DNA of 47,938 bases from an uncultured Muribaculaceae bacterium (GTDB lineage: Bacteria > Cyanobacteriota > Vampirovibrionia > Gastranaerophilales > Gastranaerophilaceae). Below the pieces are notes generated by a model, which was not told the origin of the DNA, did not search any database, and saw only the letters and a list, made by a program, of their open reading frames with translations. Both the position numbers and the translations under genes were made by a program. Where the stretch lies: the NCBI GenBank assembly GCA_964531015.1, contig CAZHCP010000002.1, positions 1 to 47,938 on the forward strand. The letters are read 5' to 3'. Of this stretch, positions 2,841 through 45,546 are shown piece by piece (position 1 is the stretch's first letter; every line of letters starts with the position of its first letter).

Positions 2841-3680
2841 ATGAGAGTATCCGCATTATCAACAAATTATTTTCAAAATGTAAATTTTAATTCCGTAAAA
2901 CATTCAAAGCCGTCCGCTTTAAATAAAACGGAAGTGAATGTCGCACAAAAAAATTCACTTGATTTATTAAAAAATTATAATGTTATTAATGTAAATTTTA
3001 AAGGTGCAAAGTACGTTCCGAGTGAAGATTTTACGGAAATAAATGCCGAAAACAGGGATTTGGTTGCTCCTTTGTATAAAAAATATCAGGAAGGAATGAA
3101 CCAAAAAGTTGATGAAGATAAATTGGATAATTATTTATCAACGGTTTTAAATAACGGCGATAAAATTTTTGTTTTGAACAAAGGTGAAAAGCCCGCAGGA
3201 TTTATACATGTTTCGACTTCGTATTCAACAATTGACATGTGTCCGTTTACGACAATTCAAAGTCTTTTTGTTTCAAAAGAAAACAGGGGAGAGGGGTTGT
3301 CGAAAAAACTCGTAAAAGAAGTTGAAAAATGGACAATCGCAAACGATTATAAAGGTATTCACGTAAAAACACACGCAAATAACGCTTCTTCAACGGGGCT
3401 TTATAAAAAACTCGGTTTTAATGACGAAAGTAAAAAATACGGTGTATATTTCCTTCCGAATAAAAATGTATTGGATTATAAAAAAGGTTATGTAAATACA
3501 AAAAACAATGAAGTAAAACCGGATAAAACATACGAAGATAAAACTTATGAAGAAAAATTAAAAGATAAAAATTTCAATCGGTTTTTAGCTTATAAAATTC
3601 ATAAACCCGAACCGATACAAATTTATGAATTTATTAATGAGAATGATTTTCCGACTCTCATAGAGAACTTGCCGTATTAG
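2841..3680 (+). CDS. GNAT-family acetyltransferase domain protein with a ~55-aa N-terminal MxVS...NFKG leader
   Basis: RBS GAGGGAG. GNAT motif A region is FVSKENRGEGLSKKLVKEVEKW...LYKKLGF. The leader MRVSALSTNYFQNVNF...VINVNFKG ends at F53-K54-G55. Confidence 0.75.
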   Translation: MRVSALSTNYFQNVNFNSVKHSKPSALNKTEVNVAQKNSLDLLKNYNVINVNFKGAKYVPSEDFTEINAENRDLVAPLYKKYQEGMNQKVDEDKLDNYLSTVLNNGDKIFVLNKGEKPAGFIHVSTSYSTIDMCPFTTIQSLFVSKENRGEGLSKKLVKEVEKWTIANDYKGIHVKTHANNASSTGLYKKLGFNDESKKYGVYFLPNKNVLDYKKGYVNTKNNEVKPDKTYEDKTYEEKLKDKNFNRFLAYKIHKPEPIQIYEFINENDFPTLIENLPY

Positions 3681-3759
3681 AGATACGCACACGATTTAGC
3701 TGAATTGGCAAAAGATAACGCAAGCCATTGCACAAATTAAACATATAATAATACGGCGG

Positions 3760-3786
3760 GGCGGGTAATTTTTATCTCGACCCGTC
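3760..3786 (+). terminator. possible rho-independent terminator after the GNAT gene
   Basis: GGCGGGT ... ACCCGTC forms a 7-bp stem (one G-T pair) with a 13-nt loop, followed by TTATTCTC. Confidence 0.3.
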
Positions 3787-3988
3787 TTATTCTCGGAATA
3801 ATGGTTATAAGGTATGTCAAACCAAAGAATTTAAAACACAAAAAGTAATAAATTAATTATTAATAATTCGGTGCTAAGAAATGAAGGCGGGGCTGTTTTT
3901 TCTCTGCTTTTAAAGCAATTATTGTATGAATTTATTATTCGATATAAAATAAAGTAAAAATAATTTTTTTATTCAAAAGGAGAAGTTA

Positions 3989-4246
3989 ATGCAAGTTACG
4001 AGAGATACTTATTTTATACCGACGACACAAGTTAAGCAAAACGGTGAAAATTTATCGGGTAATGATTTGATAAATTTAGGATATATGGCGGGACGTTTCG
4101 GGGTAAATTTAAACAATAATCCGAATGAGCCTAACTTCCCCGTTTATACAAATGACGGAGTCTTTTTTAATATTAATTCCTGTACCTCCGAAAGTTTTAT
4201 GAATAATCTTAAAAATTCGGGCATTCACTTTACGTACTTTGCTTAA
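3989..4246 (+). CDS. small hypothetical protein (85 aa)
   Basis: Strong RBS AAAGGAGAAG precedes the ATG. No domain recognised. Confidence 0.55.
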   Translation: MQVTRDTYFIPTTQVKQNGENLSGNDLINLGYMAGRFGVNLNNNPNEPNFPVYTNDGVFFNINSCTSESFMNNLKNSGIHFTYFA

Positions 4247-5025
4247 TTTGTATTCTCGATGTCCGTTGAATTTGTTATTATGAGTTCTTTCATTGAATTA
4301 ACCGCATAGTGAGTTGTTTTTAACAGGTTTTCTTTGCATATTTGTCCGCTTGCAACGAGTATTATATTTTTTATTCCCGCATTTTTTGCAGAAATATAAT
4401 CCATCGGTGCATCGCCCGTCATAAGTGTTGTTTCGGGTGCGGAAGAAAGTTTTGACAGTGCAAGTTTTGTCGGTTCTCCGCTTTCTTTTGTGTAAGGAGA
4501 AGATTCTCTTCCTATTACGACATCAAATAAGTTTTCCCAATTAAAATATTTCAAAGTAATCATTGCGGATTCAACGGAATCGGACGTTACTATTCCTGTT
4601 TTTATGTTATGTGATTTAATTTCTTTTATGAAATTTATTGCGGACTCAATCGGTTTTGTATATTCGTTTATGTTTTTATAAAAATCAATATTTACTTCAT
4701 CAAACAATTCCGTTAATTTTTTCTCCGTCGTATTAACTCCGTACTTTAACAAATCATTTCTAAAAATTTCAATAATTTTTGAGCGTGAATATAAAGCGGT
4801 AATTCCGTTTTCTTCCATCCGTTTGTTGTTTACGTCGTAACCGAGCAAAAAACACAGTTCATTAAATAATCCGTTGTTCAACCCAAATTCGCTTATAATT
4901 CGTTCGACTCTGAGACAGGTCATTTTGCCCCAAAAATAATGCAGGTCAATAAATGTTCCGTCTTTATCAAACAATACGGTATCAATATTTTTTATTGTCC
5001 AATTATCCGTTGAAACGTTAATCAT
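4243..5025 (-). CDS. HAD-superfamily hydrolase (phosphatase-like)
   Basis: HAD motif I LFDKDGTFIDL, motif II GIVTSDS, motif IV GDAPMD. Confidence 0.8.
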   Translation of the reverse strand: MINVSTDNWTIKNIDTVLFDKDGTFIDLHYFWGKMTCLRVERIISEFGLNNGLFNELCFLLGYDVNNKRMEENGITALYSRSKIIEIFRNDLLKYGVNTTEKKLTELFDEVNIDFYKNINEYTKPIESAINFIKEIKSHNIKTGIVTSDSVESAMITLKYFNWENLFDVVIGRESSPYTKESGEPTKLALSKLSSAPETTLMTGDAPMDYISAKNAGIKNIILVASGQICKENLLKTTHYAVNSMKELIITNSTDIENTN

Positions 5026-5989
5026 TTTTCATGTTCCTTAAAGAAACATCAACAAGCGATTTTGCAACGGCAACCGCTTCTGATAACATTTTTTTATCTT
5101 CCGCTAAATTATCAATTAACAAATATTTCTTTATTATTTTTCTCGCATAAGAACCGACAGCCAAACAATTCGGGGATACCGAACATAATTTTGCAAGTTC
5201 CGTTGATTTTGTATTTGTTCCGCCCGACATCATAATATATGCCGGAATATTTGAATTTTGAAACATTTGAGCCGTCGCAACCGCCTGCAATGTTGTTGAA
5301 TATTCATCATCATTTCCGCTCATGGCAACTCCGTCTGCCTGAATAATCGTTGTATAAGGTTTTCTTTTTGAAACCAATCTCTCAACACGTTTCTTTAAAC
5401 GAATATCACCGAGTTGTGAACGGTCAAGCGATATACACAAAAAACCGTCATATAATTTGTTTAACAATTCCCATTTTTCATCAACATCTTTTTCATCCTC
5501 GGTTATTGCGTGAAATTCAATACAATCAATGCCTTTTGCTATAACAGGCGGTAAAACTTCCGAATAGTCTTTTAATTGAGTTTTCATAGTAATTGCACGG
5601 GCAGGACAAGTGTTTACGCATTTTGAACAGCCTATACATCTTTTGTTTATAATTTCGGCGGTTGAAGAAATATTAATTGCTTCGTTCGGACAAACCCGCC
5701 GGCATTTTCCGCAAGCGGAACAGGATTTTGTATCAATTTCCGCTTTTGTAATATGAGGGTCACCCGATAAACCGACGCTTACGCACAAATATCGGTTATT
5801 AGAAATGCCTGCACGTTTTAAACCCTTTTTCGCCGCTTCAACAATTTCTTCTTTTGCACACACATCAAAAAATTGACATCCGGCAAGCGAATAAACCGTA
5901 ACCAATTTTTCGACTTCTTCCGCATCTTCGTTTCCTGCTCCGCAAACGAGTTTAAAACAGTGTTTTTCTTCCAACAAATCTTTTAACAT
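5018..5989 (-). CDS. LdpA-like iron-sulfur protein (TIM-barrel-like N-terminus plus 2x[4Fe-4S] ferredoxin motifs)
   Basis: Two CxxCxxCxxxCP motifs (CSACGKCRRVCP, CIGCSKCVNTCP). The N-terminal FKLVCGAGNEDAEEVEKLVTVYSLAGCQFFDV resembles my recollection of cyanobacterial LdpA (KLICGAS...). The family call is from memory only. Confidence 0.5.
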   Translation of the reverse strand: MLKDLLEEKHCFKLVCGAGNEDAEEVEKLVTVYSLAGCQFFDVCAKEEIVEAAKKGLKRAGISNNRYLCVSVGLSGDPHITKAEIDTKSCSACGKCRRVCPNEAINISSTAEIINKRCIGCSKCVNTCPARAITMKTQLKDYSEVLPPVIAKGIDCIEFHAITEDEKDVDEKWELLNKLYDGFLCISLDRSQLGDIRLKKRVERLVSKRKPYTTIIQADGVAMSGNDDEYSTTLQAVATAQMFQNSNIPAYIMMSGGTNTKSTELAKLCSVSPNCLAVGSYARKIIKKYLLIDNLAEDKKMLSEAVAVAKSLVDVSLRNMKND

Positions 5990-6142: not shown

Positions 6143-7945
6143 ATGAATATAAACTCTTACTATAATTTTTCGCAAAATATAACACGGAATAGAAATCCGG
6201 TAAAACAAACAATACCTCTAAACAGAAATTCCGCTATATTTGGTTTATCAAAAGATACCGTTTCGTTTAAAGCGGGAATTCAGGCTAAAAAGTTAACAGA
6301 GGAAATTAAGAATAGTGAAAATTATGAGAAATCAACAATGTCGCTTAATGAAGCAATCGGGATATTGGAATATTTCGGATTTGTACAGTTAGACACGGAA
6401 GGTTCTCATATTCAGTTTGAAGCTCCTTATGGCGGTCGTTATACAATAAAGAAAAAAAATCCGGTTGACAAAGGTTGTGCAAATGCAATTATTTTGGGCA
6501 TTAAACAGGCTGATGAATTTGACGGAGAATTAATCTTAAAAAACGGTGCTTTAACTGACCCGGAAAAAGAAAAATACACTTTGACTATTCAAACGGCAAA
6601 AGATAACAATGTTCTCACTTCCAATAAGTATAAAACGGAGTTTATGCCCAAAATCAATGAAAAGAAGGCTTTACGCTTGGAAAACCTGAAAAAAGCGTTA
6701 TTGGTTGTTTTTGATAACATATATACTTTAAAAAGCAATATTAATGTTGAATTTGATGAAAAGAAAGAAACTATTGATTACTTGTATGATATATACAGAA
6801 AAAAATCACTTGAAATCCCCGTTAAACTTAATTCCGATATTAATACGGAGTTTAACAAAATTGAAAATGAACTTAAAAATAAAGAAATTTTATTAAAACA
6901 ATTTATAAAAACTTTTGATGAACTAAAACCTGAAGAACTGACAGAAACTCAAATTAACGGAATAAAAGGTTTTATAAGTGAAACAAATCAGTATAAACCT
7001 GATTTTTCCCGTTTGGATTTTCTTATTGAAGAATTATATGCCGATTGCGACAAAAAAGAACAGGAACATGCACTTGCCATTAAAAATGAAGAAGAAAAAG
7101 AATTTGCATTATTATTAATACAGGAACGAAAAGAAGAAGAAAATAAATTGAGATGTGAAATCAAAGAAAAATTAACAGGTTGTGAAATGATATTAAAACA
7201 ATTAAAAACAAAATCAGATAATTTAAACAATCAAATTTCGGAACTTTCAAAATATTTCGCAAACGATAATGTCGTTAATTCCGTAATCGCATTGCATGAT
7301 GAAATTGAAAATGATTTGAATTTATCAATGAAAAAATTTAATAATAAGAAAATTATAAGATTAGAAAATAAAAGGCTTGATAATTTAAATATAATAAAAG
7401 AAGATTTGGAAAAAATCAGAACAAATGCGGAAGAAGTAATATCCGTAAAACTGCAACAACTTGAAGAAGCGGTAAATAAAGAAACATCTTGTATTGATGA
7501 TTATTATGAAAAATCCAAAAAGGCACATTCGCAAAAGCAATTAAAAAGATTTTCAAATCCGTTTATTCAAAAAGAAGAGAAGAAAAAAGCGGCGGAAGAA
7601 ACGAAAAATTCAACGCAAATCACTGAATCAAAGTCAATCAAAACTCCAATAAATCAAGAAGTGTTGACGGTAAAGGATTTATCAAAAGAAGAATTTAACG
7701 CAATAAAAAATGAGATTTTGATGTACGCTCCAAGATTAAAAGACGGTGAATTTGATAAAGTGTTAAACCAACTCAGAACCGAAAACCAAGAATTAAAGGA
7801 ACTCATTACGGAAGAATGTCCGCTTGAACGAAAAATCGAATTGTTAGAAAAATTTTGGAAAAAATTTGATGAAAATAATATGACAAAATATACAAATTCC
7901 GTAACCCGGTATTGCGAAATCTATCATTCAAGACAGCATTTATAA
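6143..7945 (+). CDS. leader-family protein: HicA/YcfA-like small domain followed by a long coiled-coil region
   Basis: RBS GAAAGGAAAGG. Leader is MNINSYYNFSQNI...DTVSFKAG. ILEYFGFVQLDTEGSHIQFEAPYGGRYTIKKK matches the HicA-like L..GF....GSH pattern. The remainder is E/K/L-rich heptad-like sequence. Confidence 0.6.
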   Translation: MNINSYYNFSQNITRNRNPVKQTIPLNRNSAIFGLSKDTVSFKAGIQAKKLTEEIKNSENYEKSTMSLNEAIGILEYFGFVQLDTEGSHIQFEAPYGGRYTIKKKNPVDKGCANAIILGIKQADEFDGELILKNGALTDPEKEKYTLTIQTAKDNNVLTSNKYKTEFMPKINEKKALRLENLKKALLVVFDNIYTLKSNINVEFDEKKETIDYLYDIYRKKSLEIPVKLNSDINTEFNKIENELKNKEILLKQFIKTFDELKPEELTETQINGIKGFISETNQYKPDFSRLDFLIEELYADCDKKEQEHALAIKNEEEKEFALLLIQERKEEENKLRCEIKEKLTGCEMILKQLKTKSDNLNNQISELSKYFANDNVVNSVIALHDEIENDLNLSMKKFNNKKIIRLENKRLDNLNIIKEDLEKIRTNAEEVISVKLQQLEEAVNKETSCIDDYYEKSKKAHSQKQLKRFSNPFIQKEEKKKAAEETKNSTQITESKSIKTPINQEVLTVKDLSKEEFNAIKNEILMYAPRLKDGEFDKVLNQLRTENQELKELITEECPLERKIELLEKFWKKFDENNMTKYTNSVTRYCEIYHSRQHL

Positions 7946-8694: not shown

Positions 8695-9444
8695 TTAATT
8701 TTTAACGGAAACATTTTTTATTGCATTTTTATTAAAAACAATAAAATAATTTTCACGAGAGTTAGTGGTTGCACCGTCAATGCCTAATTCGTCGGATATT
8801 TTTTGCATGCAATATTCGTTAACAAATTGTGACATTACTTCATGTTCCGCCATACCGTATTGAGAAAATATCATAGGTTTATTCAATGCTTTTGAAAGTT
8901 CGCAAACCATATCTCTTTTCAATTCGTTATATTTATCAATGTTTGCACCGTGTGCGGTGTTGCCTTCATATTCGGATTTTAAAGTAACTCCGGAATAAAT
9001 ATCCAATGCACCTTCGCTAAATCCGAAATAAATACCGGGACCGTATTCCGTTTTTGATATTTTTGAAGTATCAAATCCGTTTTGTAAAATATTTTCGATA
9101 TTCCCTTCCGCTGTTTTATGCAGTAAGTTATCAATGGTTTTATATTCCGTTTTATCGCCAAATAAAGATTTTAGAGAATCAACAACATTTATTTTGTTTC
9201 CGTTTTCAAAGTCGGTGAAACTCATTTTATCCAAAACCGTATAAAGTTCTTCTTTTTTATTGCTCAGTGTATTTGAAAAATCTTTTTTATATTGTTCGAT
9301 TTCCTCAGGATTGCAGGATGATAAAAACGGATTAAAATTCCCGAAGGAAGTTGATTGCGGCTGATTTTTTGTTTTTTCGTTTGTTTTCTGTTGAATATTT
9401 CTTGCGGGAGTTGAGTAAATCCCGTTTATTCCGTTTATTTGCAT
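8695..9444 (-). CDS. leader-family protein with C-terminal PARP-like ADP-ribosyltransferase domain
   Basis: RBS AAAGGAA. Leader is MQINGINGIYSTP...STSFGN. LLHKTAEGNIENILQNGFD...GPGIYFGFSEGALDIYSG follows the H..GF...G.G.YF...S..Y pattern of the H-Y-E ART clade. Confidence 0.55.
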   Translation of the reverse strand: MQINGINGIYSTPARNIQQKTNEKTKNQPQSTSFGNFNPFLSSCNPEEIEQYKKDFSNTLSNKKEELYTVLDKMSFTDFENGNKINVVDSLKSLFGDKTEYKTIDNLLHKTAEGNIENILQNGFDTSKISKTEYGPGIYFGFSEGALDIYSGVTLKSEYEGNTAHGANIDKYNELKRDMVCELSKALNKPMIFSQYGMAEHEVMSQFVNEYCMQKISDELGIDGATTNSRENYFIVFNKNAIKNVSVKN

Positions 9445-9580: not shown

Positions 9581-12500
9581 ATGAAAATATCTCCTAATGT
9601 AAATCAGATAAATTTTATATTCCCTGCAACCGTCAAAAGCGAAGAAAGACAAACAAAACCAAATACAAACGAAAATGGTTTTTCTTTTTCTTTAACGGCA
9701 AGTAATGCAATAAAAAGCTATAATACGGCATTTATAACCTTTTGCGGAGATGAGAAGCATTATGAAAATCGTAAAAAATTTAATGATTTAATTAATCAAT
9801 ATAGTAACCTTGTAAATCAAAATTTTGAGATGTCGGATTTTGATTGTAAAAAAGAAAATCTTTCTTATAAATCGGGAATTTTGCAAAAGATTGTTTCGAA
9901 CAAACTGTTATATGAAAATGATGGTATAAGAAATAATATTCAAAAAATTTTAAATAACATAAACTCCGATGAAGAATATGAATCAAAATCGGAATTGCTG
10001 GATAAATATGCCGGTGATGAAAACTGGAATAATAATGAAACAGTACGCAATATCATTGGAGAAATAACGAGCGGTGTTTTCAAAGAAAACGGTCAAAAAG
10101 GTACAATTGCGATTATAAATAAATATTTATCCGATAAAAATTGGCAAAATTGTAAAAAAATAAAGGAAAAACTTGCATTTGTTGCCTTTAATTGCAATAC
10201 GAAAGAAGAAGCAAACGCCAAAATTAAAGTTGCGGATAAAATATTATCTAATAAAATTTTGTCGGAAAATGAAGGGATAAAAAATAACATAATTATAATA
10301 TTACAATATTGTAATTCCGCTCAAAACGCAGACGTAAAAACTAAAATTGCAGATATATATTCTTTAAACCCTAAATTATACGAAAATGAAAATCTGAGTA
10401 GATTAATATGGTCAATTCTTCATACGGTATGCACAAAATCAGGATATAATATAAAATCGAAATTATTTGATAAATATTTATTTGATGAGAAATGGAATAA
10501 AAATAATTTAATCAATAATGTAATCGGTAATATGATTAACAAAATTACGAATGAAGGGGAAGAAACCGCAATTGAAATAATTTGCGATAAATATTTATCA
10601 AATAATGAATTATCGGGAAATAAGTATATAAACGAAAATATTGAAAATACATTAAAAAATGCAATGTTGTCGAAAAAGAAAGCGGAAATAATTGTAAAAT
10701 TAATGGAAAGATATTTTTGTAACGGAAATATCGATAATTATGCGAGAGAGGATATTGATAATATATTCCACTTAATGTCTTTTGTTTCGGAGGATGTGGA
10801 AAATGACAAGCGACTAAGATTATTTGATAAATATGTTGAAAATGAAATCCTTTTTAAGAATGAGAATTTGCGAAGCAATATGTATGATTTAATGTTGCGA
10901 ACATCGAAAGATGAAGCGTATGATGAAATAGAAAATTTTTTAAATAACTATATAAAATCTTCAAAACTTAATAAAAGTGAACTTGTAAAAAATACATTAA
11001 GTCATATTTTAAAAAATATATCAAATAAATCACAGCGTTATTATAATGAAGAAATTATTAATTTTGCACAAAATTATGAAATATCAAAAGAAACATTCAA
11101 AAAACTTATACAATGCTATGGGAAAATAAATACGGAGAGCATAGAAAAATTGATTAGAAATACGGGAAAAGAGAAATTTGAAGAAATCACCGACAGAATA
11201 CCGGATTTAATAACGACAAGCCGGTTAGCTTCTTTGTATAAAGTCGAAAGTATAAATGAAATTTCTCTTGCGGAAAGAAAAAATATTCTGAGAGAAATGG
11301 TAAGAAATAATAACGGAATGTTTGAATTAAGTAACAAACAAAAACAAAATTTCCCGTTAATTCCAAACAGCAGAGAAGAATATTGTTCGTTATTGCCTCA
11401 AATAGCAAGCTCAATCGGCATTGAAACAAAGGAGTTAACGGCCGATGAAGTTAGTGAGTTTGAAAAAAGAATGACAAATATGTCAAAAATATTGGAGGGA
11501 TTGCCCGATAAAAAATTTAATAAATTAAAAATTGACACAATGTATAAAAAAGATGAATTTATACACGATGTTATTAATTCATTAAAAGATTTATCCGTTA
11601 ATGAACGTCAACAGATATTCGATTTTTACGGTTTTGAAATAAGACGGCAGAAAGAACAATTATCACTCTTCGGTTATCCTCAGGATGTAAATTATGAACA
11701 GAGATTAATGCAAATACAAAACCAAAATGTAAAAAACGGAATTGAAAATGTAAGAAAATTCATAATAAAATTTACATCGGAAAATAAAGTAAAATCAAAC
11801 AATCCTTCACTTGAAAAAGAATTAAATGCAATGTTAAAACTTGCACCGGAATTGTACGGAAGCATAAATAAAAAACAACATCATACGCATGATTTTGACA
11901 TAATGAAACATTCGCTGAAAGTAATGCAAAAAATCGTACAAAATCCCAATTATAAGAAATTGAACGATTCGGATAAAAAAGTTATGTTGCTTGCCGCAAT
12001 GTACCATGATATTTCAAAAGCGGAAGGATGTGTTGATAATACGCATGCACAAGAAAGTTCGTTTGATTCTTTTTATTTGACAAAAAAATATAATCTGACA
12101 AAAGAAGAACAAAATAAGTTATATACGTTAATAAAAAATCACGAATGGTATAATTATACAAACACGGTGAATTCGCAAAATAAGGAGATTTTAAATAAAC
12201 GTTTGCAATCCGTAGCTTTTGAATTTAGAAACGGTGATATGTTCAAAATGGCACAAATATTTACGATTGCCGATATGAAAGCTGTTAAAAAGAATGATGA
12301 TTTCTATTTGTGTAAGAATAAGAACTTTGATAATTTTGCAGAAAGAATAACCGCATATACGGAAATATTAAAAAAAACGGAACCTGTTTTGCCGGTGACA
12401 AAAATACCGAAAGCAAGCGAACTTGATAAATATATTACAATCGTAAATGATGACGGTTCGACAAACATAAAGGGATTATATAAAACAGCAAGCGGAATAA

Positions 12501-13273: not shown

Positions 13274-14614
13274 TCATGCAAAAGTCGAAAATTCCGTAAA
13301 AACTTTCGGCGTATTGTTTTTTTGTAACGGAACATTAACGCTTGCCTTTATACTTGCGGAAGCATTATTTATTCCCTGTGATTTCTTTTTCTTGTGCGAA
13401 ACAATAACAGCAGTTGTTATTCCTGCAACGGCAAGTGCCCCTGCGAATGCAATGCAGGCGGTTTTATTTTGTTTTGCGAACGCACTGATTTTTTGCCAAA
13501 AGCCGTCATTGTTTTTTATTTCTTCACTTGGCGGAGGCAGTGCGGGAAGCTCATTTGATTGAGAACCGCTTAATTTTGCCGCAATTGTTTTAATTGCCTC
13601 CTCCTTATCTTGCGGTATATTTTCAACAACCGTATTTTGTTTTTTCTCGGCATTTTTGAAAAACAGATTTTTTGCATTTTTATAAAATATTTTATCGATT
13701 AAGCTGTCGCCTTCTTCGGGGAATGCTTTTTTGATTGCATTTTTTGTATCCGTAATACTGTTTTGGTAGAATTGTTCTCCCGTATATTTAACGTCCCCGA
13801 TTTGCATGCCTGTTTTAAATTCACCCACGGGAACATCGGAACCGAAGAGAAGCCTGGAAGTCATATCTCCTTTTTCATGTTCTTTAAGCATTTTTATTGC
13901 TTTTATGATATTCGGTTTAGCGGGGTCATTGCAATCAACCCAGGAAATATCGGCATATAAAGTTGCGTCATTGTTTGTAATGGAGTCTTTTAATACTGAT
14001 AAAGCAATGTTGTGTACTTTTTCTCCTCCCGAACCCATGTGTGCCATGACAACGGGAACATCTTTATATTGTTTAGCCATATCATATATTTTGTCGGGAG
14101 AAGAATAACGGAATGCTTCGTCAACGAACTCAGGGCTTTGCGGTTTGTAAGATATTGCGGTATGAAAAACGCAAGGCAACTTGTTTTCTTGTGCAAATTC
14201 CAAATAAGGTTTTACGATATCATCCGTTGCAAAGTATTCTCCGGCATCGGGGTGGAATTTTAAACCCGCAAATTTATCTTTAAATTCTCCGAATAATTTT
14301 TTTATATTTTCAACCGAGCCTGTTTTCGGGTTGCAACTTGCAAGCGGTATATATACTTCGTTGTCTTTAATTGTGTTTAATAATGCTTTATTCCCGTCAA
14401 ATTCGCAGGGCATATTTCCTTTTGCAAGGGGTTCGAGTGCGGAAATTATTGCTTTTTCAACAGTATCACCGTTTGGAAGAGGATTTTTAATGAACTTATC
14501 AACATCGGCAAGTTTAAAATTATCACTGCCCCATTTCCCGATGTGAGTGTGTGCATCGATAATTTTACCTTTAAACGAAGGTGACGTAAACGCATTAACA
14601 CGACTTACTTCCAT
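13274..14614 (-). CDS. leader-family metal-dependent amidohydrolase (TIM barrel) with C-terminal transmembrane anchor
   Basis: Strong RBS AAAAGGAG. The sequence MEVSRVNAFTSPSFKG is followed directly by IIDAHTHIG, then VFHT, AHMG and GSDVP metal-ligand motifs. The C-terminal TM segment is CIAFAGALAVAGITTAVIV. Confidence 0.75.
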   Translation of the reverse strand: MEVSRVNAFTSPSFKGKIIDAHTHIGKWGSDNFKLADVDKFIKNPLPNGDTVEKAIISALEPLAKGNMPCEFDGNKALLNTIKDNEVYIPLASCNPKTGSVENIKKLFGEFKDKFAGLKFHPDAGEYFATDDIVKPYLEFAQENKLPCVFHTAISYKPQSPEFVDEAFRYSSPDKIYDMAKQYKDVPVVMAHMGSGGEKVHNIALSVLKDSITNNDATLYADISWVDCNDPAKPNIIKAIKMLKEHEKGDMTSRLLFGSDVPVGEFKTGMQIGDVKYTGEQFYQNSITDTKNAIKKAFPEEGDSLIDKIFYKNAKNLFFKNAEKKQNTVVENIPQDKEEAIKTIAAKLSGSQSNELPALPPPSEEIKNNDGFWQKISAFAKQNKTACIAFAGALAVAGITTAVIVSHKKKKSQGINNASASIKASVNVPLQKNNTPKVFTEFSTFA

Positions 14615-22603: not shown

Positions 22604-24094
22604 ATGAAAATATTTAATAACGTAAATATAGATTTTTGCCGTGTGTTTAAGTCTGAAAATAAAAATGAAAAAGCTGCAAATTCCAATAAAAGAACAATCA
22701 GCGAAAACGATTATAAATTGTATTCAAATTCAATAGCTGTAATAAATAAAAGCCGAATTATGTTTGGGGCGAATAAAGAGCTTGAAAAGCATAAAGATGA
22801 AATAATAAATTTATACATTAATGAAAATATGATGCAAGATGATATTGCGAAAAAATATTTCTTTTCAAAAGGTACAATAAGTTTGGCATTAAGGGAATGG
22901 GGAATTAAAAAGAACGTTAAAGGTGATATATTAAGAGCAAATAAGGAAGATATAATAAATTTATACAGACAAGAAAAGCTCACAATGAAAGAAATTGCAA
23001 AAAAATATAATTGTTCGAACAGACTGTTGGAAAAGCAATTTAAAGATTGGGAAGTTGCAACCTTTTTGGATAAAACGGAAGGTAAAGAAGAAGAAATATT
23101 GAATTTATATAATAATGAGAAATTAACAATAAAAGAAATTTCCCAAAAATACGACTGCACTTGTTTTTTAATAGAAAAAATTATTAATACGGCGAAAGCT
23201 GAGGCGAATAATAAATTTTCGCAAGCCGATAAAGAAAATATTATAAAATTATATACGGAAGATAAGTTAAACCAAGACCAAATTGCCGAGAAATTCGATT
23301 GCAATAAATTTTTAATAAGTAAAATATTGAAAGATGCGGGTATTACACTTCGTACAAAAGTTTCAAAATATGAACAATATAAGGACGAAATGGTTAAACT
23401 GTATTCAGTTGATAAATTAACGCAAAAACAAATTGCCGAAAAATTTAATTGTTCGCAGTATGTTGTTTTTACTGCATTAAAAGAAGCAAACGTTAAGCCA
23501 AATAAGGAAGAACAAAAATTAACAAATTATAAAGATGAAATTATAAAATTACATTGTGAAAAAGGATATTCTCAAAAGGAAATCGCCGAAAAATACGGTT
23601 GTTCACAAGTTTCCGTCAGTTTAATATTGTCAGGAGAAAATGCAAATAAGAGAGGCATAAAATTAGAAGAGTACAATGACGAAATTAAAAAATTATATTT
23701 AACCGATAATCTTTCGGTTGAAGAAATTGCGGAGAAATTTGATTGTGCGGTTTCTTACGTAAAATTAGTATTGAGGAAAGCACATTATATTTCTGCCGAA
23801 AGAACTTCAAAAGTTGATAAATATGCCGAAGAAATAAAAAATATGTATTTGAATGAAAAATTAGAAATCAAAGAAATTGCCGATAAACTGGGGTTTTCAT
23901 CCGGTACAATAACAAGAAAAGTAAGTGAGTACGGTCTTTGTAACAGAACGAGAGAACTTGATTTAGAGAAATATAAAGATGAAATAATAAGTATGCGGGC
24001 AGAGGGATGTACATATAAAGAAATTGCAAAAAAAGTCGATTGTTCGGAAAGTGCTATACGTACCATTCTTATAAAGTGGGGGGGTGCATTTTAA
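22604..24094 (+). CDS. leader-family protein carrying nine tandem ~48-aa helix-turn-helix repeats
   Basis: Leader is MKIFNNVNIDF...SRIMFGA. Nine units have the consensus YKDEIIxLYxxEKLTxKEIAEKFxCSxxxVxxxLK (from about 22781 to 24091). Confidence 0.75.
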   Translation: MKIFNNVNIDFCRVFKSENKNEKAANSNKRTISENDYKLYSNSIAVINKSRIMFGANKELEKHKDEIINLYINENMMQDDIAKKYFFSKGTISLALREWGIKKNVKGDILRANKEDIINLYRQEKLTMKEIAKKYNCSNRLLEKQFKDWEVATFLDKTEGKEEEILNLYNNEKLTIKEISQKYDCTCFLIEKIINTAKAEANNKFSQADKENIIKLYTEDKLNQDQIAEKFDCNKFLISKILKDAGITLRTKVSKYEQYKDEMVKLYSVDKLTQKQIAEKFNCSQYVVFTALKEANVKPNKEEQKLTNYKDEIIKLHCEKGYSQKEIAEKYGCSQVSVSLILSGENANKRGIKLEEYNDEIKKLYLTDNLSVEEIAEKFDCAVSYVKLVLRKAHYISAERTSKVDKYAEEIKNMYLNEKLEIKEIADKLGFSSGTITRKVSEYGLCNRTRELDLEKYKDEIISMRAEGCTYKEIAKKVDCSESAIRTILIKWGGAF

Positions 24095-39364: not shown

Positions 39365-39368
39365 CATC

Positions 39369-40229: not shown

Positions 40230-40275
40230 TAAAAGTGACGAAAATTAAAATTCCCCTCGAAATTCCGATTATAAA

Positions 40276-40314
40276 ATCAAGAAACCGACTTTATGATATA
40301 AAGTCGGTCTTGAT
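40276..40314. terminator. long hairpin (16 bp with a 2-nt bulge) between convergent RT and DnaB-like genes; probable bidirectional terminator or structured RNA
   Basis: ATCAAGA(AA)CCGACTTTA, loop TGATA, TAAAGTCGGTCTTGAT. On the minus strand it is followed directly by TTTTAT. Confidence 0.55.
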
Positions 40315-40438
40315 GAGGATTTTCTTCCGAACGAAGTGAGGAAGGATTCTCCTTGTTTTTGTTTCTCGGCTAAGCGAATCACTTGCCCGTATTTTTATTA
40401 TAATTTACAACCGTGCCGTTTTATGACATATCCGTTTT

Positions 40439-41281
40439 CTAAAATTCATAATTTCTAATCGGCTCAAAAAACTTTGTAATTTGTGCTCTGAATAACAAAG
40501 TGCAAGTTCCGAGCGGCCCGAATTTATTTTTTGCAACCGTTATTTCCGCTTTTCCTCTATTAATAAAATAATCATCATCGTTATATTGATTATAATATTC
40601 ATCACGGTAAATAAACATTACGACATCCGAAACATTTTCAATTGCCCCTGATTCTCTCAAATCAGAAAGCATGGGACGTTTGTCGGTTCTTGATTCTAAT
40701 GCACGTGATAACTGCGAAGTTATAAAAACAGTGCAAGAATTTTCTTTTGCGATTTCTTTCAATTTTTTCATAATATGTTCAAAACCTTCACCCCGTTGCA
40801 CTTTTGAAGGAATATCAATCAGTTGCAAATAATCAATAAAAACAAATTCGGGTTTTTCGACCTCAACTTTTTCCTTAATTTTATCTGCTGTCAGGCATGG
40901 TAAATCAGAAATTTTGACATTGTAATTTTCAAGTTCTTTAATTGCGTTACTAATCTTTTCCCGCTCTTTGCCGTTTATTGTACCGCAATTAACATGCAGT
41001 GTATCAATTTCCGCAAATTGAACAATTAACTTTTTTACAAGTTGTTGTATGCTCATATCCAAAGAAAAGAACAAACATTTTTTATTATTTTTAAGCAAAT
41101 GTAACATAATGGTTGTCATAAAAGATGTTTTACCCATTGCCGGTCTTGCCCCAATGGTTATAAGACTTGATTTCTCGTTGTCTTTTAATAACATATTCAA
41201 ATCATTAAACCCGATATCCCACGCATTTTTTTGTTCGGTTAAATTTTTTTCTATTTCTCTAAAAATTTCTTTATCTATCAT
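40439..41281 (-). CDS. DnaB C-terminal (RecA-like) domain-only ATPase; lacks the DnaB N-terminal domain
   Basis: Walker A GARPAMGKTSF, FVFIDYLQLI and SQLSRALESRTDKRPMLSDLRESGAIENVSDVVMFIYRDEYY. It is only 280 aa. Confidence 0.85.
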   Translation of the reverse strand: MIDKEIFREIEKNLTEQKNAWDIGFNDLNMLLKDNEKSSLITIGARPAMGKTSFMTTIMLHLLKNNKKCLFFSLDMSIQQLVKKLIVQFAEIDTLHVNCGTINGKEREKISNAIKELENYNVKISDLPCLTADKIKEKVEVEKPEFVFIDYLQLIDIPSKVQRGEGFEHIMKKLKEIAKENSCTVFITSQLSRALESRTDKRPMLSDLRESGAIENVSDVVMFIYRDEYYNQYNDDDYFINRGKAEITVAKNKFGPLGTCTLLFRAQITKFFEPIRNYEF

Positions 41282-41343
41282 AAAGTTTTCTCCTTTATTC
41301 TCATTGTTTCATACAAGTACGTCAAATTAAGACGTGTTATTTA

Positions 41344-41352
41344 TGCTATAAT
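41344..41352 (+). promoter_or_regulatory. candidate extended -10 promoter element (TGcTATAAT) for the WYL regulator gene
   Basis: TG at 41344-41345 and TATAAT at 41347-41352. A short inverted repeat ACGTC-N7-GACGT lies at 41319-41335 just upstream. Confidence 0.3.
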
Positions 41353-41412
41353 TTCAATGTCGGAAAAATATTACAACTGTTTTGATATTGTATTTGCAAA
41401 AAGGAGTTAAAT

Positions 41413-42384
41413 ATGTCAAGACTAAACAAAGCGGAAGAAATTATTGAACTTGCAATGATGTTTCAAAACAGTTATTGCGGTTTGTGTATTGATGATATTC
41501 AAAAAGAGTTTGAATGTTCACGCAGGTCGGCAGAACGTATGAAATCGCTTTTGTTTGATATGTTCCCCGATAAAGTTGAGGAAGTTCCGACAACCGATAA
41601 GAAAAAACGCTGGCGATTTACAAAAGGCACTGTGAATGCACTGATTTCTTTTACGGCGGATGATTTTGCCAATCTTGAATTTTTGAAAGGTTTATCAAAT
41701 GATGAAAATCGAAAAAAAGAAATTGATGAACTGATTGCAAAAGTTAAAGCATTAACTCCTCAAAAGAATTTACAATCACTTGATACCGATGTTTCGGCAA
41801 TTATGGAATGCGAAGGCTTTGCCGTAAGACAATATTCGGGTGTAAAAGTTGAACCGTCGGTTTTGGAAAAACTCCGCAACGCTATGCTATCATTTAAAAA
41901 AATCCGATTTGATTACCCGACTGACAAGGGTAATCGCTCAATTACGCTTAATCCTTACGGAATACTAATTTCGGATAAATACTATTTGGTCGGATTTAAT
42001 GAATACGTGAATGATTTGCGACTTTATAAAATTGATAAAATTTCAGGTCTTGAAATTTTAGAAGAATATTTTGAAAAAGATGAAGATTTTTCGCTGACGC
42101 AATATTGCCAAAATTCTTTCGGAATTTACAGAGAAGAACCGTTAAAAATTACTCTCGACTTTGATTGTTCGGTTGCCGATGATGTTTTAAATTACCATTT
42201 CCACCCGACACAAAAAATGAAACAACTTGAAAACGGAAATGTTCAAGTAAAATTTACGGCAGGCGGAACCGAGGCAATCTGTCGGGAACTGTTTAAATGG
42301 GGCAAAAAAGTAAAAATCAAAAAACCTGTTGAACTGAAAAACCTTTATAAACAATATCTTTTTGATGTGTTGAATAATTACTGA
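41413..42384 (+). CDS. WYL-domain transcriptional regulator (HTH - WYL - WCX architecture)
   Basis: RBS AAAGGAG. N-terminal HTH (IDDIQKEFECSRRSAERMKSLL). The WYL-type core is YGILISDKYYLVGFNEYVNDLRLYKIDKISGLEIL, with a C-terminal extension. Confidence 0.8.
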   Translation: MSRLNKAEEIIELAMMFQNSYCGLCIDDIQKEFECSRRSAERMKSLLFDMFPDKVEEVPTTDKKKRWRFTKGTVNALISFTADDFANLEFLKGLSNDENRKKEIDELIAKVKALTPQKNLQSLDTDVSAIMECEGFAVRQYSGVKVEPSVLEKLRNAMLSFKKIRFDYPTDKGNRSITLNPYGILISDKYYLVGFNEYVNDLRLYKIDKISGLEILEEYFEKDEDFSLTQYCQNSFGIYREEPLKITLDFDCSVADDVLNYHFHPTQKMKQLENGNVQVKFTAGGTEAICRELFKWGKKVKIKKPVELKNLYKQYLFDVLNNY

Positions 42385-42401: not shown

Positions 42402-43556
42402 TTAGTCGTTGTTTTGATTATTTTTCGGAACTTGAACAATTATTTTGCCTTTTGATATATCAGAGATAAGTTTTGTTGCATTTTCGACATAATCTTTATA
42501 ACGAGGATCGTCAATTTGTTTTGAAGAAATAAGTTCGTCGACTTTTGCAAAATATGCGGAAAGATTTTTAATTCGTTCCGTTTTATTTTCGTGTATCCAT
42601 TGCATAAGCGGCTTATTTGCTTTTTGTCCGTTGCATGAAGTGTGCATTGCCATATAGTTTGAAATATCATCATGGTTTAATTCTATATCCCTTGCAAGAA
42701 TATGGTCGGTATTCGGAACCGAAAATTCAAGCATTCTTCTTGCAATGTCTTTTGATTTCCAATCCTGACCGTTTTTATCCTTGCCCGAATATTTAACAAT
42801 CCAAGCAGAGTTCATATCCGAAGATGTCGGGAAACTTTTTACCAGCTCCAAAACCTTATTGTATTTATCCTGATTTGAAATATGAACTCTGCTTATTTTG
42901 TCTATCAGGACTTTCCTTCGGAACGGAGATTCCGCATTATTCTTTTTAATTATTTTTTTAAACTCAACAACTTTTGATAACAATGCCCGACTTTCTTCTT
43001 CGGGAAGTTTTTTTGCAATATATTCTATTTCTTTAATTTTTTTCAACTGTACATGTTCCAACAGAGGTAATTTTGTATTACGAAGTTGACATAATAAAGT
43101 TTGGATATCTTTAATGCCAAGGTCTTTTGAAAGTGCGGTCAATTCTTCAAAAACGCTGTATTCGACAGGTCGCATATAATCTTTGTATTCGTCCAAAAGC
43201 GAAAGATAATTTTCATTTTCAGTTTCGTCGAGTTTATTCAAAAATTCATTGTATTTATCGGCAGGTAATAATTTTTTTCCGCATGCCGGGCATGGAACAT
43301 TATCAAATGCATTAACTTTAAATTTTGAAGGAACTTCAATTAATTCCGGGTTTGAACTTGTATAAACCCTGTCATCGCCGGAAGGGATTAAATATGCCTC
43401 TATATCATTAAAAGTTATTTTTTTTATATTTCTGTTTTCTGTTTGCTCGTCGGGTGTTTGATTGCACTTGAAATTTTCTTGTGACTCGTGTTTAAACACG
43501 GTTTTATTATATTGCTTTGCATATATACCCGATAAATTTATTGTAGAAATTTTCAT
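42402..43556 (-). CDS. leader-family protein with CPACG zinc-ribbon and C-terminal HNH nuclease motif
   Basis: I prefer the ATG at 43556 (MKISTINLSGIY...), although the RBS is weak. The HNH signature is NTDHILARDIELNHDDISNYMAMHTSCNGQKANKP. The track ORF starts at 43571. Confidence 0.7.
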   Translation of the reverse strand: MKISTINLSGIYAKQYNKTVFKHESQENFKCNQTPDEQTENRNIKKITFNDIEAYLIPSGDDRVYTSSNPELIEVPSKFKVNAFDNVPCPACGKKLLPADKYNEFLNKLDETENENYLSLLDEYKDYMRPVEYSVFEELTALSKDLGIKDIQTLLCQLRNTKLPLLEHVQLKKIKEIEYIAKKLPEEESRALLSKVVEFKKIIKKNNAESPFRRKVLIDKISRVHISNQDKYNKVLELVKSFPTSSDMNSAWIVKYSGKDKNGQDWKSKDIARRMLEFSVPNTDHILARDIELNHDDISNYMAMHTSCNGQKANKPLMQWIHENKTERIKNLSAYFAKVDELISSKQIDDPRYKDYVENATKLISDISKGKIIVQVPKNNQNND

Positions 43557-43656
43557 AAAATACCCGACCACTTAATACATATAATAATAAAATATAAACA
43601 AAAATAAAATTGCCTGTTTTTTGGTTACGAATTGTAAAGTTGGATTTTTTGAGGGT

Positions 43657-43796
43657 AAAAATTGGGAAAATGTGAAAAAATTAATCAAAAATGCACAAAA
43701 AAGACAAAAATAAGAAAAATTGCACAAAAAAAACGTTAAAAATGCAAAAAATACGATTAAAAATTTATTAAACTCAAAAAAAATTCTGCAAAAAAA
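43657..43796. promoter_or_regulatory. array of 13 A-tracts phased at about 10 bp (predicted intrinsically curved DNA) upstream of the 43858 gene
   Basis: A4-A8 runs start at 43657, 43667, 43675, 43687, 43697, 43706, 43715, 43726, 43738, 43746, 43759, 43776 and 43790. The motif TGCA(C)AAAAA recurs four times. Confidence 0.6.
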
Positions 43797-43857
43797 TTTG
43801 TGTTTAAACTTTAAATTGATATTATGACAGAGTACAAAAAGGAATAAGGTAAGAAAA

Positions 43858-45546
43858 GTGAAAATATCACAACGCAGTTACACGGGTATAACGAAACAAA
43901 ACATAAAACAACAAAATCTTAAACAACAAAACGGCACAAAACAAACATTAAATAAAAATAACGGTGTTGCAAATAAATCCAATTTTAAAGGTGGCATATC
44001 TGATGGTGCTTTTAATCTGTTGGACGGCATGTTCCGTGTGTTGGAAATAAATCCGATGGTTCAAGTTTCGGTTGTTGATACGGTTGCAACAAACATCCCG
44101 AGAACCGTTGTTGATTTAAAAACGGGTTTGGCTGCCGCTTTGGAAACATGCAGAAGAGAATTTTCCGGTTTGTTTGTTAACTGTTTAATGCCCTCAGGGA
44201 TTGTTTTTGGGGTTGCTTCACTGTTACCTAAAGCGGAAAATTTAAAAGGTACAAAGATTTTTAATTCTTGGGCAACGGAAGATTCCATTGAAAAATTAAA
44301 AACCGTATATAATAAAGCACAAGAATCTTCGGCAACGGATAAGACGAAAGAATATGTCGAAAAGGCAATCGGCTCGTTAAAAGGACTTAACGGCAAAAAT
44401 TGGGAAGCATACGCAAATCATGCCCAAAATCCCGTATATAAAGATGCCGTTAATGATATAGTTCAAGCAATGTCGACAACAGTAAAAAAAGACAGAAAAT
44501 CTTTCATAAACAGTGCAAGAGAAAAATTGGCAGGCTTAACAAAAGCCGAAACAACTCTTAAATTCGGTGATAAACCGCAAGCAAATTTAAGTAATACATT
44601 GCGGGATATTGTTGATATGGGTGCGAGATTTAATGACGTTAAAGCAAAAACGGCAAACTCCGCCGATGTTCCGAAGGCAATAAATAATTACTGCAAAAAC
44701 TTAACGAAATTTGTTAAACAAAAAAGCTTTATCGGCATGGGTATTGTAATTGCAATTGCCATCAGCGTACAAAAAATAAACAGAGCAATAACAAGAAAAC
44801 AGTTTAATGCAGAAGGTGCTCCGATTTATAAAGATTTTGGCAAAAAAGACACCACGCAAAAAATGGACGAAAAACAAAAGAAAAAATTTAAAGCAAAAAA
44901 AATTATTTCCGCCGCAAGCATGTTCGGAATTGCCGCATTGTCAATGATGAAAAAGCCTTCTTCGGCAATGTTCCAGTTCTCGGGCAAGTTCCCGACCGTT
45001 GACCAATGCCGTTGGATTGCTTCTTCAACAATCGCAAGCAGAATGTGGGGGGCGGAAGACGAAAACGAATTAAGAGAAACAACCGTTCGTGATATAGCTT
45101 CGTTTGCCGGCTTGTATGTTTTGGGCGACTACGTCAACAAGGGTGTTGCTTCCGCAATTGAAGCCGTTACAAATTCAAAATTGTACCAAAAAACCGGTAA
45201 AAAACCTGTTGAACTGTTAAACAGAAACATTCAAAATTCCGACAAAGCACAAAAAGGCATTTCAAAAGTTGCAAAAAATTTCTTTGATTGGATGAAAAAT
45301 ACGGAATTGAAATCAGCACTTGAAGTAAAAGACGTAAGAACAAGAAATTTGAGAAATTTATGCAAATTGGCGGATATCGGATTTTCAATAGTGATGTTGG
45401 GTATTTTATTGCCGAAATATAACAGAAGCGTAACCGAAAAGAAAGTTGCGGTTGCAAAAGCGGCAGAAGAACAACGAAACAAAAATATGTTGGAACTTTC
45501 CAAAAAGGAAATGCCGTCTATATTTAATGCAATTATGACAAAATAA
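43858..45546 (+). CDS. leader-family polytopic membrane protein
   Basis: GTG start after AAGGAATAAGG. Leader MKISQRSYTGITKQ...KSNFKGG ends at F43-K44-G45. At least five hydrophobic segments are present (for example FIGMGIVIAIAISV and IISAASMFGIAALSMM). Confidence 0.7.
   Translation: MKISQRSYTGITKQNIKQQNLKQQNGTKQTLNKNNGVANKSNFKGGISDGAFNLLDGMFRVLEINPMVQVSVVDTVATNIPRTVVDLKTGLAAALETCRREFSGLFVNCLMPSGIVFGVASLLPKAENLKGTKIFNSWATEDSIEKLKTVYNKAQESSATDKTKEYVEKAIGSLKGLNGKNWEAYANHAQNPVYKDAVNDIVQAMSTTVKKDRKSFINSAREKLAGLTKAETTLKFGDKPQANLSNTLRDIVDMGARFNDVKAKTANSADVPKAINNYCKNLTKFVKQKSFIGMGIVIAIAISVQKINRAITRKQFNAEGAPIYKDFGKKDTTQKMDEKQKKKFKAKKIISAASMFGIAALSMMKKPSSAMFQFSGKFPTVDQCRWIASSTIASRMWGAEDENELRETTVRDIASFAGLYVLGDYVNKGVASAIEAVTNSKLYQKTGKKPVELLNRNIQNSDKAQKGISKVAKNFFDWMKNTELKSALEVKDVRTRNLRNLCKLADIGFSIVMLGILLPKYNRSVTEKKVAVAKAAEEQRNKNMLELSKKEMPSIFNAIMTK

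Follow-up and report, generated by a model that had tools for sequence, protein, structure and literature searches.

The ESPR, YSIRK-G/S and KxYKxGKxW motifs are short conserved sequences found at the extreme N-terminus of many unrelated envelope proteins, where they precede an n-region and a hydrophobic core. Other N-terminal peptides serve for docking: the 'INLLP' peptide of PilN binds PilM and the N-terminal tail of FtsN binds FtsA, the layout in both being a peptide from Met1, a basic linker, one transmembrane (TM) segment and a periplasmic domain. Encapsulins and bacterial microcompartments (BMCs) receive unrelated enzymes by means of a short linear peptide on a disordered linker, the encapsulin peptides being usually C-terminal, with a cargo motif ending in GSLKG, and the BMC peptides being amphipathic helices. 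Type III secretion (T3S) signals lie at the extreme N-terminus, are disordered and lack a hydrophobic core, consist of two elements with a tolerant spacer and are notoriously degenerate in sequence. In early flagellar substrates a hydrophobic N-signal and a gate-recognition motif (FxxxPhi) lie at least 19–30 residues apart (PMC8983047). Here we describe a two-part leader carried at the N-termini of otherwise unrelated proteins encoded in a 47,938-nucleotide stretch of Gastranaerophilales DNA (the complete contig CAZHCP010000002.1; the whole stretch, GC about 33%, is referred to as the window), and consider how it compares with these systems.

A bipartite leader shared across Gastranaerophilales

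The original prediction had picked out visibly related N-termini on at least eight unrelated proteins of the window. All of the N-termini it quoted were found in place, with plausible ribosome-binding sites. They were scored with a two-box position-specific scoring matrix (PSSM) built from independent leaders, using a threshold score of at least 10 and percentiles relative to 1286 open reading frames (ORFs). By this measure six window leaders are strong, none of them ranking below the 97th percentile. Of the others, one is borderline and one weak, and a further gene carries an F-box (defined below) alone. Lengths are in amino acids (aa).

2841..3005, + strand: leader of the GNAT protein, 55 aa (gene 2841–3680), MRVSALS…NYNVINVNFKG; PSSM 19.4, 97th percentile
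6143..6277, + strand: leader of a HicA-like coiled-coil protein, 45 aa (gene 6143–7945, 600 aa), MNINSYY…DTVSFKAG; PSSM 24.3
9340..9444, − strand: borderline leader, 35 aa (gene 8695–9444, 249 aa), MQINGINGIY…QSTSFG; PSSM 10.0, 95.8th percentile
9581..9748, + strand: leader of a 1227-aa protein, 56 aa (gene 9581–13264), MKISPNV…SYNTAFITFCG, long-leader type; PSSM 22.0
14567..14614, − strand: minimal leader of a tail-anchored amidohydrolase, 16 aa (gene 13274–14614), MEVSRVNAFTSPSFKG; PSSM 23.7
22604..22771, + strand: leader of a helix-turn-helix (HTH)-repeat protein, 56 aa (gene 22604–24094), MKIFNNV…NKSRIMFGA; PSSM 16.9, 97th percentile
43488..43556, − strand: weak, degenerate leader of an HNH-like protein, 23 aa (gene 42402–43556), MKISTINLSGIYAKQYNKTVFKH; PSSM 1.8
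43858..43992, + strand: leader of a conserved 562-aa membrane protein, 45 aa (gene 43858–45546, GTG start), (M)KISQRS…KSNFKG; PSSM 22.2
45695..45757, + strand: F-box alone (GINFKSG), without a full leader (gene 45695–46048, 117-aa acidic protein)

The consensus, taken from the leader alignment and residue counts, consists of an N-box that begins at Met1 (M-K-[IV]-[NS]-x-[IV]-[NTS]) and an F-box (phi-[SN]-F-K-G), separated by anything from no residues to about 50 that make up a polar spacer. Conservation is highest at F and G of the F-box, the residue between them varying (K, R, T, N, Q or S), and the residue following G is not conserved between families (G, A, K, T, F, N, Y or D). The minimal form, with a spacer of zero, has only 10 residues (MNINSISFKG). 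Leaders on other proteins in other species include MKINSITP…SFKGG, MEVSKINSANANIQSFKG, MKINSYHS…NTSFKG and MKIQPIKYQNQSFKA, and a further peptide of the same type is MKITSNSINFKGK. The long-leader type has an extended F-box with a Tyr about eight residues ahead of F, and this is shared by unrelated long leaders (NYRANFVAFLG, NYKANFIPFCS, SYRANFLTFSG). The original observation that the F-box ends at residues 42–56 in five of the window proteins was confirmed (residues 55, 45, 56, 56 and 45). In the borderline leader the F-box reads SFGN. The weak leader has a good N-box (MKISTIN) and an F-box without Gly (TVFKH), and its close orthologues retain K-T-[AV]-F-[KR]. Membership of the 117-aa acidic protein is doubtful (N-box score −10.8, F-box score 12.6), and the window ORF at 3989 gave no PSSM score for a leader.

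Beyond the window, the leader was sought in 80 ffh-centred Gastranaerophilales loci (about 1.35 Mb) that are independent of it and come from 80 species-level genomes whose Ffh is 68–87% identical to the window Ffh. In the 1316 ORFs of the window and these loci an N-box start occurs only 40 times. FKG, sought at residues 8–75, is present in 15 of these 40 ORFs and in 15 of the 1276 without an N-box (Fisher odds ratio 50, p = 1e-16), so that it is 30 times commoner after an N-box than in other proteins; in most of these 15 exceptions the start was mis-called and an N-box is present in frame. A PSSM score at or above the threshold was reached by 53 of the 1286 N-termini compared with two of 938 internal-start decoys, which is the N-terminal enrichment that had been proposed as a check. 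After removal of six obvious false positives 47 carriers remained, spread over 30 of the 81 sequences, 16 more-distant loci among these; the relatedness first seen by eye on a handful of unrelated proteins thus extends far beyond the window, and the tagged share is about 4% of sampled ORFs. About a third of the leaders are only 8–19 aa long. Their composition is enriched in N, S and Q (log2 +1.3, +0.9 and +0.6) and depleted in L, E and D (log2 −1.8, −1.4 and −1.4). From these results the bipartite N-terminal leader is real and is shared across the order.

The leader has no hydrophobic core, as had been predicted. Over the first 60 residues the maximum 10-aa hydropathy is 0.3–1.2 in the eight window leader proteins compared with 2.5–3.3 for the Sec-type or TM N-termini of the same window, and no window leader has a twin-arginine (RR) pair or an h-region. 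On these grounds both a Sec type I or II signal peptide and a Tat signal were rejected. A type IV prepilin leader was rejected since no hydrophobic helix follows F-K-G and the genuine prepilins of the same genomes are canonical (e.g. MQNKNG/FTLAEVLITL and, in the window at 47385–47936 on the − strand, LQA/FTLSEVLITL), and a double-glycine (PCAT/C39) leader since the LSxxELxxIxGG consensus is absent and the residue after G is unconserved. Searches of 20 leaders against Pfam and 10 against NCBIfam, with E up to 10, returned noise only, so in these curated libraries the leader is undescribed, as had been suggested. No description of the motif was found in a literature search. A search with the leader alignment of an index of 5.8 billion proteins gave no match, none of just 418 candidates that share words with it reaching a score, the tool being unsuited to short motifs.

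Several properties bear on what is being selected. Ser is encoded by TCN and AGY codons alike in both boxes, and the upstream regions of the leader genes are unrelated apart from the ribosome-binding site. In close orthologues the two boxes are fixed and the spacer drifts; for example, 10 near-orthologues of the GNAT leader retain both boxes with a variable spacer. The family of the 562-aa membrane protein (38 members, 56–62% identity, order-wide) has F43 in 38 of 38 members and G45 in 37 of 38; the spacer is 25–86 residues long, hypervariable in length and sequence, and without a conserved column. The alternation of TCN and AGY codons, the drifting spacers and the invariant F together show that selection acts on the protein and not on the DNA. 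A lower GC content of the leader genes was considered and rejected as not significant (p = 0.07). In AlphaFold2 (AF2) models the predicted local distance difference test score (pLDDT) is below 50 for residues 1–49 of the membrane protein, and residues 1–16 of the amidohydrolase are coil (pLDDT 47 at residues 1–10) with the barrel beginning at residue 17, by which the leader is disordered and lies outside the fold.

Carrier proteins and their relation to the envelope

Most carriers have no Pfam match. Among the rest the solid domains are GNAT, Amidohydro_2, HTH repeats, metallophosphoesterase, PLD, PRK-type kinase and LysM. The functional labels originally attached to the window carriers fared unevenly. 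GNAT (residues 90–196 of the product of gene 2841–3680), amidohydrolase (Amidohydro_2) and the HTH array are solid; HicA (HicA_toxin E = 1e-5, which is under the Pfam cut-off, and a PHROG 'toxin' match at 5.7e-5) and HNH (gene 42402–43556) are weak matches. The labels ADP-ribosyltransferase for gene 8695–9444 and HD hydrolase for gene 9581–13264 found no support in Pfam, PHROG or PDB sequence searches, the body of the 1227-aa protein encoded by the latter having neither a Pfam nor a PDB sequence match. For the family of the 562-aa membrane protein (AF2 pLDDT 66.7) Foldseek against PDB gave no match at E up to 0.001. The HTH-repeat protein consists of about eight tandem 50-aa modules that resemble sigma-70 region 4, an architecture unusual for a bacterial DNA-binding protein.

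Membrane proteins are over-represented. With topology read from hydropathy and charge only, 23 of the 47 carriers have at least one TM-like segment compared with 203 of 1183 background proteins (17%), an enrichment of about threefold. In one recurrent architecture the leader is followed by a K-rich linker and a strongly hydrophobic segment (loci L003, L006, L008, L024, L032 and L026, and the L034 protein at 13210). Five of these (L003, L006, L008, L024 and L032) are LysM carriers, the LysM domain of L024 passing the Pfam cut-off, and the Sec-type segments have Kyte–Doolittle values of 2.1–2.3 over 19 aa. The L044 carrier has a leader, a linker and then a lipobox-like ALTGC. Other carriers are polytopic or are tail-anchored enzymes, in which the TM anchor lies more than 350 residues downstream of the leader. 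About half have no hydrophobic segment (GNAT, HTH array, 1227-aa protein, metallophosphoesterase, PLD), and the carriers include enzymes that need cytoplasmic cofactors (GNAT and the PRK-type kinase) as well as HTH arrays. In those carriers that possess a Sec-type segment or lipobox-like sequence of their own, the leader must be cytoplasmic during insertion. The suggestion that the leader is an export signal was not established, some carriers being Sec-type LysM or lipobox-like proteins and others enzymes of cytoplasmic type.

A conserved motif, [IV]-P-x-[IV]-F-x-x-[FLM], lies at the C-terminal end of several leader-bearing membrane proteins. In the window it occupies 45511–45543 (gene 43858–45546) and 13277–13312 (gene 13274–14614, − strand), and it is found in the homologues P0062, P0065, P0067 and P0073; examples are …MPSIFNAIMTK, …TPKVFTEFSTFA and …IPKGFEKFV. 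It may represent a second short linear motif of the same proteins.

The amidohydrolase family gives a view of how the leader is acquired. An exhaustive HMMER search with the window protein recovered only 239 relatives among 1.84 billion representatives. In the window protein the leader abuts strand beta-1 (KIIDAHTH), Amidohydro_2 beginning at residue 19, and in about 40 homologue clusters a short leader is likewise fused straight onto this strand (e.g. MKITSNSINFKGKIID, MRVSANNLISFKGKIID), F-x-G lying exactly one residue ahead of it. Leaderless relatives are short and of cytoplasmic type (e.g. MAKIIDAHVH, MIIDAHVH), and distant relatives in other phyla have ordinary Sec or lipoprotein signals. 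Within the family the leader and a C-terminal TM anchor co-occur (counts 23/14/8/46; odds ratio 9.4, p = 4e-6), i.e. the two were gained jointly, and this co-occurrence, taken with the leaderless cytoplasmic-type relatives, indicates that the tag was acquired as a cytoplasmic enzyme became associated with the envelope. In one homologue of the window protein, P0126 (750 aa), the amidohydrolase domain is present twice in tandem. Its second copy has an internal F-box (…MLSFSGKGKIID) and no N-box, so the F-box travels with the domain on duplication.

Possible readers of the leader and competing explanations

The explanation that we tentatively favour, and which comes close to being probable, is that the leader serves this lineage as a protein-level tag for sorting or docking. 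A common receptor would read it on the cytoplasmic side and would route clients to, or dock them at, an envelope-associated site. This explanation is the only one that fits every cargo class without special pleading. The disordered N-terminal peptide would present two short linear motifs, the N-box at Met1 and a beta-strand-like F-box. A single trans-acting receptor, which is hypothetical, would read them in the cytoplasm, probably once the N-terminus emerges, and would gather a mixed clientele (soluble enzymes, proteins with a tail anchor or of bitopic type, membrane proteins of polytopic type and some Sec-type precursors) at a common envelope-associated site or machine. The receptor, its cytoplasmic reading and the identity of the reading machine are inferred.

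Two of the systems introduced above are the nearest precedents for docking. The layout of the L026 carrier, the L034 protein at 13210 and the LysM family is that of the PilN- and FtsN-type bitopic proteins, and the N-box MKINSI(T)P resembles M-x-R-INLLP of PilN, by eye only. Unlike PilN and FtsN, for which there is one protein per system, the leader marks about 4% of the proteome, soluble enzymes included, and has a second box (SFKG). The likeness to encapsulin and BMC targeting peptides is that a short linear peptide with a disordered linker would send unrelated enzymes to one destination, and GSLKG is somewhat like SFKG; the differences are that none of the sampled loci showed a shell gene and that membrane proteins are impossible as such cargo.

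The most concrete candidate for a reader would be remnant flagellar type III machinery kept without filaments. In gut Melainabacteria 13 core flagellar genes are common to all, including fliF, fliH, fliI, flhA (two copies), flhB, fliPQR, flgC, flgG and flgE, and they are kept even in MEL.A1, a genome without filament, L ring or P ring (PMC3787301). Complete flagellar gene sets occur in only some genomes (PMC4040986). A 2026 preprint reports them for about 25% of Gastranaerophilales genomes, the remaining 75% or so keeping only flhB, fliI, flgG and similar genes, for which a secretion role has been 'postulated' (bioRxiv 10.64898/2026.04.24.720558). In the sampled loci we found an orphan FlhA paralogue of 487 aa (e.g. 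L027:7180–8643, − strand) in which residues about 135–486 correspond to FlhA's C-terminal cytoplasmic domain (FlhA_C) and the membrane domain is absent. It covers positions 321–652 only of the FHIPEP profile (E = 4e-50) and 322–677 of TIGR01398, and matches Bacillus subtilis FlhA_C (PDB 3MIX) at 3.6e-24. Ahead of this lie, in order, a DUF4177-like N-domain, a coiled coil and the linker of FlhA. It was found in L014, L022, L027, L028, L031, L033, L035, L081, L083 and L085–L087, forms at least 120 clusters in this lineage (69–100% identity, all about 487 aa) and is about as conserved across the order as Ffh. As it is annotated 'FlhA/FHIPEP' in databases, it may account for part of the order's reported 'partial flagellar gene sets'.

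FlhA_C forms the substrate-docking ring of type III export gates, and this function makes the orphan FlhA_C a concrete candidate reader; its link to the leader stays hypothetical. In L014, L022, L027, L028, L031, L035 and the distant L033 a conserved pair of leader-bearing membrane proteins lies about 1.5–3 kb upstream of ffh, and the orphan FlhA_C adjoins this pair in these seven loci. We consider it quite unlikely that a soluble ring-forming FlhA C-domain paralogue, derived from the flagellar type III export gate, reads MKINSI…SFKG and directs about 4% of the proteome (enzymes, toxin-like proteins and membrane proteins among it) to the envelope or across it; this would be a so far unrecognised general sorting route of flagellar origin, with a signal of defined consensus. 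Adjacency of FlhA_C and leader genes as a rule was rejected, as it is confined to the seven related loci and absent in L081, L083, L085, L086 and L087. A tetratricopeptide-repeat protein upstream of ffh was also considered as a receptor and rejected as it is not syntenic in other loci. Flagellar basal bodies are retained by Buchnera, a non-flagellated bacterium, and orphan FliI, FlhA and FliF occur in non-flagellated Chlamydia (PMC2830194). As in these bacteria, flagellar export parts are kept here without a filament and are suspected of a role in general protein traffic, but the retained FlhA paralogue lacks the entire membrane domain, and no substrate motif is known from either of the other two.

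A further protein family was noticed in the sampled loci. Its members start MG[LM]xxSQxRFLxLTxRK and end …NIExTF[KS]xF[SAG], with conserved N- and C-terminal helices and a variable middle, a layout like that of flagellin. They are encoded at L060:17126–18136 and 18362–19330, L062:211–1689, L063:1830, L066:383, L081:6522–7340 (− strand) and L083:11918–12943. In L083 the family adjoins the orphan FlhA_C, and in L060 and L083 a 268-aa Gly/Ser-rich protein comes next. It has no match in Pfam, NCBIfam, PHROG or PDB sequences.

Several points weigh against a cytoplasmic docking tag with this reader. The adjacency of FlhA_C and the leader pair is limited to one sub-lineage and may therefore be plain synteny near clpP–ffh, and the window itself has no FlhA_C gene. 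A docking peptide need not begin at Met1, so the strict N-terminal placement would suit an export signal or a co-translational one just as well. The leader genes have neither a promoter nor a sigma-28 motif in common. The carrier topologies come from hydropathy and charge alone, and both flanks of the TM segments are Lys-rich.

The main rival, which we consider rather unlikely, is that the leader is a secretion signal by which an effector-like repertoire is exported through the retained filament-less flagellar type III apparatus, with the N-box in the role of the N-terminal T3S signal and gate or chaperone recognition falling to the F-box. Such export has been proposed for Buchnera and for non-flagellar substrates of Campylobacter. 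The leader shares with T3S signals its position at the extreme N-terminus, predicted disorder, lack of a hydrophobic core and two elements with a tolerant spacer, and its composition, rich in Ser and Asn and poor in Leu and acidic residues, resembles published T3S biases; composition and disorder are in line with the bias of injectisome-type effectors, a bias that is itself not specific. Some cargo is toxin-like (GNAT, and the weak HicA and HNH matches), some carriers (pair A/B) are laid out in an Inc-like manner, with a signal, then a TM hairpin and a helical domain, the core flagellar type III secretion system is reported to be kept order-wide and the orphan FlhA_C exists.

Against this, the analogy with flagellar substrates drawn in the original prediction mostly failed. 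By PSSM, the motif is absent from the authentic FlgB/C/D/E/F/G, FliK and FliC of the clade (loci L034, L042, L055 and L075). The N-boxes of nine authentic flagellar subunits fall at percentiles 7–98 and their F-box scores are mostly background, FlgL being the only one with an N-box-like start and FlgE the only one with a modest F-box (TAFKSS). A rod/hook early-substrate signal was rejected, as 18 of the 47 leaders are no longer than 20 aa, under the required 19–30-residue separation, many being only 8–19 aa, and the spacer can be zero. Descent from Flg_bb_rod was rejected too, since PF00460 had no match for 20 leaders at E up to 10 and the PSSM gave no support; a likeness by eye of SNAIKSYNTAF and SNSIAVIN to SNNIANxNT of Flg_bb_rod had no statistical support. 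A shared promoter or sigma-28 regulon was rejected as no sigma-28-like motif lies upstream of the leader genes, and the k-mer enrichment seen there reflects merely orthologous upstream genes. It should also be noted that the leader is sharply conserved, unlike the degenerate T3S signals, that carriers with Sec-type hydrophobic segments, LysM domains or a lipobox are unlike flagellar type III substrates, and that no immunity-like partner genes are evident beside the window 'toxins'.

A second rival is that the leader is a cleaved pro-peptide or regulatory degron that keeps enzymes and toxins inactive or short-lived, a clade-specific protease cutting at or after F-x-G or the leader feeding an AAA+ protease. 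Prp, for example, cuts an N-terminal extension off ribosomal protein L27 and off some capsid proteins of phages, and the L27 extension (MLKLNLQFFA/SKKG) is loosely similar to the leader. This is improbable. The dominance of F and G over the variable residue between them, the position of F-x-G one residue before strand beta-1 in the amidohydrolase and the toxin-type domains of several carriers would suit it, but different families have different residues after G, a cleavage site leaves the conservation of the N-box unexplained, the F-box persists internally in P0126 and the leader genes have no candidate protease linked to them. In tblastn, L27, L21 and Prp of B. subtilis found no match in the 1.4–1.5 Mb sampled, the genes lying outside the sampled regions.

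A Sec/SRP signal extension that tunes the site or rate of Sec/YidC insertion, in the manner of ESPR, YSIRK-G/S and KxYKxGKxW, is highly improbable. With these motifs the leader shares its brevity, extreme N-terminal position and conservation on many unrelated envelope proteins, and a subset of carriers (L003, L024, L026, L034 and L044) has the same layout of leader, K-rich n-region and hydrophobic segment, in which signal peptidase or lipobox sites may be present; the enrichment of TM proteins also favours it. Unlike them the leader has two parts joined by a spacer of variable length, a hydrophobic segment is lacking altogether in about half of the carriers and in the tail-anchored members the TM segment lies more than 350 residues away. 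The ESPR, YSIRK and KxYKxGKxW families themselves were rejected, as the Pfam ESPR and NCBIfam YSIRK and KxYKxGKxW models gave no match and only about one carrier in four has an h-region. The weakest rival, that the leader has no dedicated function and reflects AT-rich codon bias or unstructured A-rich mRNA at codons 2–8 plus N/K/S-rich linkers, draws on the genome's GC content of about 33%, at which M-K-I-N/S starts are cheap in A/T-rich codons, and on the low complexity of the spacers, and is effectively refuted by the rarity of the N-box and its association with FKG, by the two decoys in 938, by the switching of Ser codons and by an invariant F and near-invariant G amid hypervariable spacers.

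Other genes of the window and significance of the tag

The divergent leader-gene pair at 42402–45546 is directly adjoined by a cluster (38243–42384) that encodes an RtcB RNA ligase (38243–39364), a reverse transcriptase (39369–40229, RVT_1), a DnaB_C-like ATPase that lacks the N-terminal part of the helicase (40439–41281, − strand) and a WYL-WCX regulator (41413–42384); it looks like a defence or RNA-repair island. On the − strand at 28360–34990 two [FeFe]-hydrogenase-like genes (29552–30997 and 32418–34133) flank a SpoIIE-type PP2C phosphatase (31261–32418), with small thioredoxin-like or Fe-S ORFs also between them and a Rex-like regulator (34358–34990) alongside. A putative AdhE (34995–37634, labelled by eye) lies beside the regulator, and the whole would be a redox module for fermentation in which one hydrogenase may be sensory. 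LdpA is a circadian-input protein of cyanobacteria, and an LdpA-like Fe-S protein (5018–5989, − strand; LdpA_C E = 4.5e-17) is encoded here in a non-photosynthetic relative of that group. At the other end of the window a type IV pilin-like gene (47385–47936, − strand) runs off the contig end and has Ala instead of Gly at −1 (…RLQA/FTLSEVLITL); it is adjoined by a gene for an SLH-domain protein (46070–47233).

The Sec, Tat, LPXTG, T9SS CTD and PEP-CTERM signals each exposed a dedicated machine and made secretomes readable from genomes. The leader described here matches no described sorting signal and probably marks an uncharacterised protein-routing pathway, with a client set of about 40–80 proteins per genome when the tagged share of sampled ORFs is extrapolated. 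The lineage is an uncultured branch of Cyanobacteriota from the human and animal gut. Pfam has no match for most of its tagged proteins, and it is puzzling that about three quarters of the order's genomes keep a flagellar export core without a filament. If the tag addresses the flagellar core or the orphan FlhA_C, the purpose of the vestigial flagella would become directly testable, and the leader would be a rare example of a type III-related signal defined by sequence. Even with another reader, the motif provides a handle for annotating and studying the order.

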